NCBI RefSeq assembly: GCF_000027125.1 | Contig: NC_017626.1 | From: Escherichia coli 042 | GTDB lineage: Bacteria; Pseudomonadota; Gammaproteobacteria; Enterobacterales; Enterobacteriaceae | Direction: 5' to 3' (one strand) | Length of the DNA: 64,000 bases | In this document: piece by piece, positions 1,729 to 3,102 of the stretch | Position numbering within the stretch: the stretch's first letter is position 1 | Layout of the letters: every line of letters starts with the position of its first letter | Position numbers and translations under genes: made by a program | Notes under the pieces: model-generated | Databases searched by the model: none | Told to the model about the DNA's origin: nothing | What the model saw: the letters and a program-made list of their open reading frames with translations, nothing else

Positions 1729-1744
1729 GACGCCCTTCTAAGAG

Positions 1745-2821
1745 TCAAGCTGTTATCGGGATACTGTTGATCCGCCTGTTTTGATTGCGCAGTAACGTGT
1801 AAACTTCGCGGGAGATATATCGCTTTAGACAGCGTATCGCTTCCATTTTTGTATGTCCTTCGGCTACACGCCTGGCGACATATTCCTTTGTTTTTGCGTC
1901 AGTTCGTAAGCGTCCGATGGCGATGATGTGAAGTGCACTATTTGCAGCACGATCTCCACCACGATTAAGTCGGTAACGGTTCGTTTTTCCAGAAGAAACG
2001 GGGACCGGGCTGACACCACACAGTGCCGCAAATCCTGATTCTGATCTTAACCGTTGAGGATTGTCTCCGGCAGTGATCAGCAACTGTGAAGCGCTTTCGT
2101 ATCCGATAGCATTACGTTTAATCAGCTCAGGTGCCAACTCGTCGACAATTGCCGCAATCATGACATCCAGATCAGCGATTTCGTCATGTAACTCGAGATA
2201 GCGTCGGGCAAGGGACTTTAATGAAATGCGATAAACGTTGGTTACATTGCGGTATTCACTGGCATCAGGTCTCCAGGAACCCAGGGTCCTGATGAGCTGC
2301 ATGCGCGTCATATTTCTGAGCTGTTCACGTAATTCATCCGGGGCAGAGATAATATTTGAATGGATAATCTGGAGAGCGACTCTGCGGGCTGATATTGCTG
2401 TTTTTCGGCAAGTTTTTAATACCCGCAGGGACTCAATCATGCCATCACGCGTTTTGGGAGTAACTGTCCTGATGCCTGAGAATGCTGCATGAGCGGCACA
2501 TTCAGCATCAATTGTGTCACTTTTACCCCGTTTGCGTCGCTCCATCCGGTCTGGAGCAGTCACCTCAAGAACTTCTAACCCGGCGTTCTGAAAATAACGA
2601 AGCAAACCGGAACCATAGGTACCTGTGCACTCAACACCAATTCGCTTTAATGTCCCAAACGAGGTCATCCATGCCAGCATCTGCCGGTAACCTTGTCGTG
2701 TTGTGGAGAAATACTGAGTCCCAAGGACTTTATTGTTCTGATCTACGACAGCGGCAACGTGCAAATCTTTATGTGTATCCACGCCACCCACAACGGCAGC
2801 TTTGGTAACTTTATCAACCAT
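1745..2821 (-). CDS. IS110-family (DEDD) transposase/recombinase
   Basis: 358 aa; N-terminus MVDKVTKAAVVGGVDTHKDLHVAAV (VGxDxHK motif typical of IS110 family); AGGAG RBS 8 nt upstream of the ATG. Confidence 0.75.
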   Translation of the reverse strand: MVDKVTKAAVVGGVDTHKDLHVAAVVDQNNKVLGTQYFSTTRQGYRQMLAWMTSFGTLKRIGVECTGTYGSGLLRYFQNAGLEVLEVTAPDRMERRKRGKSDTIDAECAAHAAFSGIRTVTPKTRDGMIESLRVLKTCRKTAISARRVALQIIHSNIISAPDELREQLRNMTRMQLIRTLGSWRPDASEYRNVTNVYRISLKSLARRYLELHDEIADLDVMIAAIVDELAPELIKRNAIGYESASQLLITAGDNPQRLRSESGFAALCGVSPVPVSSGKTNRYRLNRGGDRAANSALHIIAIGRLRTDAKTKEYVARRVAEGHTKMEAIRCLKRYISREVYTLLRNQNRRINSIPITA

Positions 2822-2840
2822 GACAGAGCTCCTGTGAGGA

Positions 2841-3102
2841 AACAGAGTTGAATCTCCAGACAGATAACCCGGACAGGACAGTAACGAGACAAGCCGTCAG
2901 GCCCTTCTTGAGTCACGCGCATCGGTGAGGAGATGCCTCGCATGAAGGCGCTTCCGGCAACCGACGGGTCCAGGGCAGGACACAAAAGGTCGATCGCTGT
3001 GTGAGTCAGGATGCGGGAAGGTCTTCACTGCATCAGTAATCACACCAATCTGGTTAAACGGCAAACTAAGTGGTGGTAAAGACTGACATCGGCATTATTA
3101 CT
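2841..3102 (-). ncRNA. Candidate bridge-RNA/non-coding left arm of the IS110-family element
   Basis: ~260 nt non-coding region 5' of the recombinase gene inside the element; by analogy with IS110-group elements this arm is where the guide (bridge) RNA is encoded. No structure was computed. Confidence 0.3.

Follow-up and report, generated by a model that had tools for sequence, protein, structure and literature searches.

An ISEc21-like IS110-group element nested in IS911 of Escherichia coli 042 and the guide RNA predicted in its non-coding arm

An IS911 copy in Escherichia coli 042 is interrupted within its transposase gene by a 1374-bp element that has a long non-coding arm at one end, which raises the question of whether this arm encodes an RNA that directed the insertion. 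The locus lies in the window analyzed here, a 64,000-nucleotide stretch of contig NC_017626.1, and a sequence-only reading had proposed that the element belongs to the IS110 family and encodes a bridge RNA. The evidence below makes it very probable that this is an intact IS110-group copy, an isoform of ISEc21 (ISKpn60-like), which entered the transposase codons of IS911 by RNA-guided insertion.

Boundaries, recombinase and identity of the nested element

The limits of the element (Table 1) were read directly from its junctions which, on the minus strand, are ...TTCCACAGCGAT abutting AGTAATAATGCC on the left and ...AGAAGGGCGTC abutting CAGGGCAGTCATTAT on the right, so that IS911 orfB is split between ...CACAGCGAT and CAGGGCAG..., that is, between the codons H-S-D and Q-G-S-H-Y. 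When the empty site was rebuilt from 150 nt of each flank, it matched uninterrupted IS911 copies in a single piece at 100% over 300 bp, so the insertion was exact, with zero target bases gained or lost. The bounds given by the earlier reading and its statement that there is no target duplication are both in agreement with these results. Its placement of the element in IS911 also holds, since IS911 inverted repeats flank both sides (1412-1437 and 5232-5257) and show that the element is truly nested; this host copy is additionally interrupted by IS30. No terminal or subterminal inverted repeats were found in the 1374-bp element, and a search of the window at up to 3 mismatches returned no free target sites, circle junctions or tandem junctions.

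The single recombinase gene begins with an ATG preceded by AGGAG 8 nt upstream. It leaves 16 nt of element after its stop, as had been described from the letters alone. Its product matches the Pfam families DEDD_Tnp_IS110 (PF01548, residues 13-150, E = 3.5e-19) and Transposase_20 (PF02371, residues 238-315, E = 4e-12), and scores 195 bits against the NCBIfam model NF033542, ‘IS110 family RNA-guided transposase’, which has a cut-off of 140 bits. In a MAFFT alignment, D15, E64 and S277-G278 align with D11, E60 and S241 of IS621, and S277-G278 is invariant; D102/D105 lie within SDTIDA, which is similar to TDTVDA of IS621, a match made by motif only, as IS621 is gapped there in the alignment. By these comparisons, the 358-aa protein has the family's DEDD and Ser residues. 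Identity to IS621 is 24% in the MAFFT alignment, and a phmmer search against all PDB chains returned no hit, with IS621 missing even at E <= 10, in keeping with the early impression that this recombinase is unlike that of IS621; the relationship to IS621 is therefore taken from Pfam and MAFFT.

Elements of the IS1111 group (ISEc11, IS4321/IS5075, ISKpn4, ISPa11) have related DEDD transposases and are likewise RNA-guided and site-specific, but their non-coding region lies downstream of the gene, they have subterminal inverted repeats and the order of their guides is reversed. With 281 nt upstream of the gene versus 16 nt downstream, and no subterminal repeats, the element belongs with the IS110 group and not with IS1111, as first suggested.

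By the ISfinder rule, isoforms share >95% protein or >90% DNA identity. The recombinase is identical to TnpEc21 at 347 of 358 residues (97%; TnpEc21 taken from the source data of PMC11187229) and the DNA is 92.6% identical to copies annotated ‘IS110-like element ISEc21’, values that make the element an ISEc21 isoform. The ‘different family member’ proposed from the letters is indeed not IS621, but neither is it an uncharacterized element. It shares with ISEc21 its 1374-bp length, layout, target site, ends (AGTAATAATG... and ...AGAAGGGCGTC), target guides, donor-type loop and lack of target duplication, and the guide columns are the same as in the ISEc21 copy L001; the 7.4% DNA divergence falls mostly in the 5' stem-loop and third codon positions.

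The RNA-guided nature of such an element is already known from the experiments on ISEc21 by Siddiquee, Pong, Hall and Ataide (2024, Nat Commun), in which the guide RNA comes from the left arm, co-purifies with the protein, must be present for the circle to form and for insertion to occur, and can be reprogrammed; the intermediate is a circle with a junction promoter, no target bases are duplicated, and the target is the H-S-D/Q-G-S codons of IS3-family DDE transposases (PMC11187229, Supplementary Fig. 11). The general bridge-RNA mechanism has been described for IS621 (Durrant 2024, PMC11208160; Hiraizumi 2024, PMC11208158).

On IncR plasmids, a disrupted ISEc15 adjoining vapBC (vagCD) contains copies that share 99.9% identity with the window element, the same context in which ISKpn60 has been described (PMC9412624). 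ISKpn60 is an ISfinder name that plasmid papers use (e.g. PMC9412624, PMC12217459). The element is therefore apparently identical or nearly so to ISKpn60, a name drawn from context and not from sequence comparison. Best matches of at least 99% identity were found in 246 E. coli records, many of them identical along all 1374 bp, and in 1333 records of a plasmid collection, where matching plasmids as a whole come most often from Klebsiella; the window variant at 99.9-100% identity is present on Klebsiella, Enterobacter and Citrobacter plasmids as well as in E. coli. Identical copies in recent RefSeq records are already labelled ‘IS110 family RNA-guided transposase’, and a proper annotation for this locus is ‘ISEc21-like (ISKpn60) in IS911’.

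Table 1. Features of the element, its flanks and its predicted guide RNA (window coordinates)
Feature	Position	Strand	Details
Whole IS110-family element	1729..3102	-	1374 bp; an isoform of ISEc21 that apparently corresponds to ISKpn60
IS911 side of left junction	3103..3111	-	Junction reading and empty-site match to IS911
Right target half in IS911 orfB	1721..1728	-	CAGGGCAG, codons Q-G-S; junction reading and empty-site match
Right end	1729..1748	-	TTGACT (-35 box, overlaps TGA stop) and left donor sequence AGAAGGGCGTC
Recombinase gene	1745..2821	-	358 aa; DEDD (RuvC-like) domain, coiled coil, Tnp domain with catalytic Ser
Left-end non-coding arm, predicted to encode guide (bridge/seek) RNA	2822..3102	-	281 nt, no ORF in phase
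AATAAT, -10 half of predicted promoter	3094..3099	-	Promoter formed only when right and left ends are joined
5' stem-loop	3034..3087	-	Element nt 16-69, without guide-like sequence; -10.6 kcal/mol, z = -1.5
Target-binding loop module (predicted)	2940..3031	-	Element nt 72-163; basal stem and inner GAC/GUC hairpin separated by an internal loop
Left target guide (predicted)	2992..3001	-	CACAGCGAUC; identical to IS911 top strand CACAGCGAT followed by C, would pair with bottom strand
Right target guide (predicted)	2968..2978	-	CUGCCCUG with 3' extension GAC; CUGCCCUG is the reverse complement of CAGGGCAG
Linker hairpin between both loops	2927..2939	-	Small; pairs 99% kept, double changes in 2/3
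Donor-binding-type loop module (predicted)	2867..2920	-	Element nt 183-236; built like target loop
Left donor guide (predicted)	2899..2908	-	AGAAGGGC(CU); same sequence as nt -11..-4 of the right end
Right donor guide (predicted)	2877..2886	-	(C)GUUACUG with extension UC; UUACUG is the reverse complement of C/AGTAA, the right/left end junction

A predicted two-loop RNA and its guides

The long 5' non-coding arm noticed at the outset is confirmed, although the coordinates first given, 2841-3102, were slightly off. It can be aligned by nhmmer to 79 related loci in Alpha-, Beta- and Gammaproteobacteria (78 at E < 1e-9 and one truncated locus at 7.6e-5), and the comparison bears out the prediction of a two-loop bridge-RNA fold, with two conserved internal-loop modules that covary across 67 sequences. 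The stems of these two loops are paired in 95.0% of cells among the 67 relatives, versus 33-43% when partners are slid, and changes on both sides of a pair occur in 219 cells versus 20-47 in the slid controls. Compensatory changes are present at 13 of the 16 pairs of the target-loop basal stem, and the basal stem and inner hairpin of the donor-type module, a module that ranks with the best-conserved stretches of the arm, are 96-98% paired, also with compensatory changes. The target-loop module folds at -30.5 kcal/mol (z = -2.3) and takes in nt 89-147, published as the seekRNA region of ISEc21; the second loop (nt 183-236) is not discussed in the ISEc21 paper (PMC11187229). Thermodynamic stability is not unusual for the whole arm (z = -0.55) or for the donor-type loop alone (z = 0.1), so the two-loop structure is supported by covariation and not by folding energy. 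Rfam covariance models gave zero matches at E <= 1 in window positions 1000-4000, and the library appears to have no model that fits this RNA.

Each loop contains a pair of short sequences that match DNA at the junctions. The complementarity to the IS911 flanks which had been anticipated for the loops is present at the sites named, and the loops have matches to both ends of the element as well. The left target guide matches at 10 of 10 positions and the right at 8 of 8, and the latter together with its GAC extension forms an 11-nt complement to the right junction, which reads GTC followed by CAGGGCAG. Across relatives, the left target guide tracks the left flank (0 of 5000 in a permutation test), and target position 2 (A/G) covaries with guide U/C (28 + 13 concordant, 2 mismatches). 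For the donor-type loop, left-end position 4 (A/C) covaries with right donor guide U/G in 33 of 33 cases (25 + 8), and left-end position 3 and its guide base are T/A in 31 cases, C/G in 1 and T/G in 1. The left donor guide, which leaves donor positions 7 and 9 unpaired, and the right end, where CTTGAC...AGAAGGGC(G/A)TC is kept in about 70 relatives, are both nearly invariant, so they provide no covariation test and are simply consistent with pairing. The donor-type loop matches the joined right and left ends, which would be the donor. Independent insertions of the element and its relatives occupy the same site, H-S-D before Q-G or R-G, in different IS3-type genes.

These observations suggest a mechanism in which the element would insert by RNA-guided site-specific recombination within the codons surrounding the second catalytic Asp (H-S-D/Q-G-S) of the IS911 transposase. 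In the target loop, CACAGCGAUC has the sense sequence of the left target and CUGCCCUG is antisense to the right one. In the donor-type loop, AGAAGGGC has the sense sequence of the right end and UUACUG is antisense to the left end, and the two together would specify the joined ends of an excised circle. Top strands would be cut after GAY in the target and GTC in the donor and then exchanged, whereupon the right-guide extensions (target-loop GAC and donor-loop GUC) would gain a position-8 pair with the incoming partner strand, and only top-strand information would be inherited.

Expression of the RNA and of the gene may also depend on the circle. The joined ends contain TTGACT, a 17-nt spacer and AATAAT, a predicted σ70 promoter reconstituted at the circle junction, and the ISEc21 junction promoter has been demonstrated (PMC11187229, Fig. 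6a); natural head-to-tail junctions are present in the relatives L037-L039. By its sequence, this joined-end promoter would transcribe both the RNA and the gene from the circle alone. In the integrated copy, no -35 box lies upstream of AATAAT and a simple promoter scan found no promoter for the arm.

Weighing other explanations

With guides of just 6-10 nt each, it might be asked whether the complementarity between arm and flanks is coincidental and the target is chosen by the protein. When the arm was shuffled 20,000 times, the individual guides were matched at rates of 0.0005 (left target, 9-mer), 0.009 (right target, 8-mer), 0.0017 (left donor, 8-mer) and 0.084 (right donor, 6-mer), but both target guides never occurred together (0/20,000), nor did all four (0/20,000). 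The guides are placed in the loops of a fold that is supported by covariation, they change together with the target or the end in relatives, and ISEc21 has been reprogrammed (PMC11187229). Chance is hardly conceivable as an explanation, and is already refuted by the comparative data as far as computation can do so. A different alternative, that this copy has the right kind of sequence but is an immobile fossil of no present function, is quite unlikely. The missing -35 box, the lack of a circle or tandem junction or free target site in the window, and a host IS911 that is itself dead and also broken by IS30 would all fit such a copy, but its ORF, loops and ends are intact and many unrelated strains and replicons of E. 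coli have copies that match it at 100% along all 1374 bp, which argues for recent spread; in addition, the gene is co-directional with IS911 orfAB and could be transcribed by read-through.

It is also unlikely that the first loop acts by itself, as a short seekRNA that suffices for the target and for a donor flanked by target halves, the second loop being a 5'-UTR or regulatory structure. This explanation draws on the 58-74-nt RNA that is abundant in ISEc21 and was enough in a mini-element assay, where a 58-nt form comprising just the target loop worked with target halves on both sides of the mini-element (PMC11187229), and on the z-score of the donor-loop fold given above. In addition, the target guides pair with both element junctions, the left guide with the left junction and the right guide, including its extension, along 11 nt of the right one, so one loop could in principle hold both ends. 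Against it stand the conservation of the second loop in the 67 relatives, the covariation of its 3' side with left-end position 4 (25 A/U and 8 C/G, zero exceptions), the complementarity of its GUC extension to target GAY at 48 of 48 loci, and the finding that a target-loop-only RNA yielded just one of two junctions for another IS110 element (preprint 10.1101/2025.10.25.684509). RNA-guided insertion with two loops remains the favored explanation.

For the window itself, this conclusion is of little import, as a catalogued and experimentally studied IS has disabled another IS. The locus does provide a clean natural case of an RNA-guided mobile element that parasitizes others through the most conserved codons of their transposase.

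Junction patterns and alternative guides among relatives

The window element and IS621 both combine a DEDD and Ser recombinase with a 5' RNA that has target- and donor-binding internal loops (PMC11208160, PMC11208158). In both, the left guides are complementary to bottom strands and the right guides to top strands, right-guide extensions pair with partner DNA in a handshake, and a promoter is rebuilt at the circle junction. They differ in size (326 aa and a 177-nt RNA for IS621 versus 358 aa and a 281-nt arm here) and in target, which is REP for IS621 and the coding sequence of another IS here. IS621 also has a shared CT core, which the window element lacks; the right guides here match position 8 of the partner and not their own. 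Every placement of a shared core or 2-nt duplication (AT, TC or CA) fails in the window element; with GAT kept at the left junction and GTC as the right end, a 2-nt repeat is impossible. The element thus falls outside an IS621-type bridge system in the strict sense, for lack of an identical core dinucleotide.

The same pattern extends to relatives. Left junctions end in GAT or GAC at 60 of 60 natural junctions and right ends are GTC at 77 of 77; at positions 8-9 the target has A-Y where the donor has T-C, the base at position 8 being invariably A in the target and T in the donor. A ‘class 2’ of right junctions (GTC followed by A...) was considered as evidence for a TC core and rejected, as 5 of 7 are merely targets with AGR/AAG codons and only L005 and L079 lack one C. 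At 48 of 48 loci the right-guide extensions, including the donor-loop GUC, are complementary to partner DNA and mismatched to their own, so strand exchange would be favored by the base pair gained. The 60 left and 77 right junctions would then be a natural record of top-strand-only inheritance. Top-strand-only excision and integration have been reported for CazIS110-1 (Sun et al. 2025, preprint 10.1101/2025.10.25.684509), and that model predicts the pattern of this clade, target A-Y on the left and element T-C on the right in every copy; CazIS110-1 is a distant element in a distant organism, and the link is drawn from natural junctions only.

A further feature concerns 34 relatives in which the target loop has two alternative 5' halves, each with its own left guide (e.g. 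Ser AGC versus Ser TCN, or N-T-D versus H-S-D), that both pair with the same 3' strand, so that this loop may be bistable, or ‘two-headed’. We propose tentatively, and at somewhat less than even confidence, that the ISEc21 clade is a bridge-RNA variant which needs no shared core, as described by the position-8, top-strand and two-headed patterns. Two by-products of the analysis may be new: a clade without a core dinucleotide common to donor and target but with cross-pairing right-guide extensions, and the competition of two left-target guides for one stem in many relatives, though not in the window element. Engineering of bridge recombinases may profit from the core-less clade, the cross-pairing extensions and the presence of two alternative left guides on one RNA.

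RNAalifold applied to the first 92 nt of the relatives alone found almost no structure, and an upstream guide enclosed in a strictly local hairpin was only weakly supported. The partner strand of the upstream half sits further downstream, and an explicit test of that pairing succeeded. In the window element, the 5' stem-loop without a guide occupies the place where relatives have the second left-target guide, an arrangement that would make this element a single-headed derivative of the two-headed form.

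The nested element and its known relatives

On the minus strand, IS911 orfB reads ...TTC CAC AGC GAT up to window 3103, is interrupted by a foreign segment from 3102 to 1729, and continues at 1728 as CAG GGC AGT CAT TAT. When 150 nt from each flank were fused, the resulting 300 nt matched uninterrupted E. coli IS911 copies at 100% identity and in one piece, so the insertion is exact, 1374 bp long, and without duplication or loss of bases. Both the nesting in IS911, whose inverted repeats lie on either side of the junctions, and the absence of a target duplication had been proposed from the sequence alone and are borne out. 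An IS30 with a 383-aa transposase ORF breaks this IS911 a second time, making a nest of insertion sequences three deep. The window is part of a chromosomal island of E. coli that adjoins the pic autotransporter gene, and near-identical E. coli chromosomes carry an extra group II intron here that the window lacks.

Features of the window and example loci of relatives with two left guides (element nt are counted from the left end)
Feature	Coordinates	Strand	Remarks
Start of pic	1-960	minus	serine protease autotransporter
IS911	1412-5257		inverted repeats at 1412-1437 and 5232-5257
5' non-coding arm	3102-2822	minus	281 nt
Target-binding module	3031-2940	minus	element nt 72-163; long hairpin, -30.5 kcal/mol, z = -2.3
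Donor-type module	2920-2867	minus	element nt 183-236; same build as target-binding module
Ribosome-binding site	2833-2829	minus	AGGAG
Recombinase ORF	2821-1745	minus	358 aa
Post-stop segment	1744-1729	minus	16 nt
IS30	about 3697-4920		transposase ORF 3764-4915
Helicase-like ORF	5637-8507		956 aa, DEAD/DEAH-box
Relatives with two left guides	L025:1185-1356, L049:1176-1347, L056:732-903, L035:1177-1348, L026:1170-1341		examples among loci L021-L085

The layout described in the sequence-only reading, a single recombinase gene behind a 5' non-coding arm and closely followed by the element's end, agrees with these coordinates, and no terminal inverted repeats were found in the element. Its protein contains two Pfam domains, DEDD_Tnp_IS110 and Transposase_20, and clears the NCBIfam model 'IS110 family RNA-guided transposase'. 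Overall identity to the IS621 protein is only ~24%. Alignment places D15, E64 and S277 opposite D11, E60 and S241, which are catalytic residues of IS621, and D102/D105 fall within SDTIDA, the counterpart of IS621 TDTVDA by motif position only; a phmmer search with the window protein matched no solved structure.

The protein is identical to TnpEc21 at 347 of 358 residues (source data of Siddiquee et al. 2024, PMC11187229). At the DNA level the element shares 92.6% identity with copies annotated 'IS110-like element ISEc21', and identical copies are labelled 'RNA-guided transposase' in recent RefSeq annotation. By the ISfinder isoform rule, the window element is an isoform of ISEc21. Best matches of at least 99% identity occur in 246 E. 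coli records, many of them identical along all 1374 bp, and in 1333 records of the plasmid collection; across all 1847 matching plasmids, the most frequent genus is Klebsiella. Plasmid copies at 99.9% identity sit in a disrupted IS3-family element adjoining vapBC on IncR plasmids, and since ISKpn60 has been described in this same setting (PMC9412624), the catalogue name of the window element is very probably ISKpn60. Two 99.9% copies (L086, a K. pneumoniae IncR plasmid, and L087, a K. quasipneumoniae plasmid) have the normal H-S-D target on the left and unrelated DNA on the right, beside a Tn3-family transposase gene or beside arsB, which suggests deletions or rearrangements beginning at the element's right end. 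An insertion in the PilZ-coding region of K. pneumoniae mrkH, called both ISEc21 and ISKpn60 (PMC12217459), has a target outside the IS3 family and may mark an off-target site.

ISEc21 forms a circle in which the abutted ends create a new promoter, needs its upstream non-coding region in cis or in trans, and inserts with zero duplication of target bases; a 74-nt 'seekRNA' co-purifies with its protein, a 58-nt version (nt 89-147) is sufficient, and the RNA is reprogrammable (PMC11187229). Durrant et al. list ISEc21 in their supplementary tables as a member of the IS110 group whose RNA lies in the left end (PMC11208160). Given these experiments, this classification and the RefSeq label, the earlier proposal of a bridge-RNA recombinase was right; an IS110 element in IS911 is confirmed, its bridge-RNA interpretation is supported, and both element and mechanism were already known through ISEc21. 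The unusual core and the two-guide pattern described below may offer leads for specialists.

Guide modules in the 5' arm

The internal loop of the target-binding module carries on its 5' side CACAGCGAUC, identical to the target top strand CACAGCGAT|C, and on its 3' side, past a small GAC...GUC hairpin, CUGCCCUG, the reverse complement of the right target CAGGGCAG. In the donor-type module, the 5' side has AGAAGGGC, which equals right-end nt -11 to -4, followed by a GAC...GUC hairpin and then a 3'-side UUACUG, the reverse complement of C|AGTAA in the donor (the element's joined right and left ends). Individually, the four guide matches recurred in 20,000 arm shuffles at rates of 0.0005, 0.009, 0.0017 and 0.084, and all four together in none. 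The joined ends also form a TTGACT-17-AATAAT promoter sequence. No Rfam model matches the arm RNA.

One genome was scanned for each species, which yielded 80 loci of related elements (68-99% protein identity) in Alpha-, Beta- and Gammaproteobacteria, and the arm could be aligned in nearly all of them. In an alignment of 67 arms, 95.0% of cells in the two-module structure are paired, versus 33-43% in slid controls (stem partners shifted along the alignment), and 219 cells show changes on both sides of a pair, versus 20-47; none of 500 shuffles reached the observed values. The two-loop fold and the complementarity to the IS911 flanks that had been anticipated are thus both present. Guides also covary with the DNA. 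Left-end position 4 is A or C where the right donor guide has U or G (25 + 8, no exceptions), left-end position 3 and this guide combine as T/A in 31 loci, C/G in 1 and T/G in 1, and target position 2 is A or G where the right target guide has U or C (28 + 13, with 2 wobbles and 2 mismatches), while identity between left guide and left flank exceeds all 5000 permutations.

Chance complementarity of the arm with flanks and ends is excluded, because the shuffles, the paired-stem covariation and the guide/DNA covariation are all contrary to it. Target choice by pairing of the RNA with both target strands, and a promoter on the circle, are each shown here or in the ISEc21 literature. A model in which the seekRNA is the sole guide and the second loop has no such role draws real experimental support from the mini-element (PMC11187229), but it is hard to square with a second loop that covaries with the left end without exception; this covariation supports a second loop that would read the joined ends, as in IS621. 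It is quite improbable that the window locus is itself an immobile fossil, as its element is undamaged and matches widespread copies exactly.

Inferred cleavage sites and the core

With positions numbered after IS621 (Hiraizumi et al., PMC11208158), top-strand cleavage would follow target G7-A8-Y9 and donor G7-T8-C9, leaving no common core dinucleotide; at the window junctions and in 48-77 related loci, A-Y stands in the target and T-C in the donor. In 44-47 of 48 loci, the GAC that follows the right target guide is Watson-Crick complementary to the final three donor bases, and target A8 is a mismatch for it throughout. The GUC that follows the right donor guide pairs with target G-A-Y in 48/48 loci, and donor T8 is a mismatch for it in every case. 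Covariation extends to the position-7 partner, with C opposite donor G in 41 loci and U opposite donor A in 3. These right-guide extensions would represent the published 'handshake' principle, stretched into the core region of IS621. Natural junctions have GAY on the left in 60/60 cases and (G/A)TC at the right end in 77/77, a record from natural copies that would be the outcome expected under top-strand-only inheritance, which has been reported for another IS110 element (preprint 10.1101/2025.10.25.684509).

Across the family, left flanks terminate in GAT or GAC (H-S-D, N-T-D and similar), right flanks start C/A-R-N-G-G (Q/R-G-S-Q-Y/F), and there is hardly any variation in the right end, ...CTTGAC-N5-AGAAGGGC(G/A)TC. 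Natural right-end/left-end junctions are present in L037, L038 and L039 (Pusillimonas/Neopusillimonas), where GGGCGTC|AGTAAAAGAATG occurs with TAGAAGGGGTC|AGTAATACTG upstream, at about locus 1194-1215 and just past the tnp stop codon (about 2556-2590); this indicates related elements in head-to-tail arrays. At the right junctions of L005 (about 2825) and L079, GTC|AAGGC and GTC|AGGGG are one C short of the CAA or CAG called for by the frame, which could reflect a 1-nt cleavage slip or a later deletion. In L005 the left flank comes from one IS3-type element and the right flank from an IS911-like element.

Relatives with two left guides

The target loop's 5' half occurs twice in 34 relatives (protein identity about 68-77%), and the additional, upstream copy carries a different 9-nt left guide, typical pairs being CACAGCGAT versus CACUCYGAU, or AACACCGAU versus CACUCCGAU; the window element and ISEc21 are without this upstream half. 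Both 5' strands can pair with one and the same 3' strand, the upstream one in 94.5% of cells (slid controls, 25-49%) with both-side changes in 9/14 pairs, and the main one in 95.9% (30-46%) with such changes in 9/16. Of the insertion sites, 22 resemble the upstream guide more closely and 12 the main guide; in 29/34 loci the closer guide agrees with the site at 8 or more of 9 positions (0/5000 permutations as good), and elements whose guides are identical occupy sites of either target class (L049 versus L056, L035 versus L026). The arrangement looks like one RNA with two alternative left-target specificities, of which no description was found in the literature searched. The two 5' halves are paralogues, so common descent could account for part of the covariation.

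A sister lineage in enterics (L014, L004, L005, L012 and L019; Enterobacterales, 82-84% protein identity where listed) has CACUCUGAU or CACACUGAU (Ser TCN-type targets) in its main loop in place of CACAGCGAU, so the target classes that are joint in the two-headed RNA are split between two elements in enterics.
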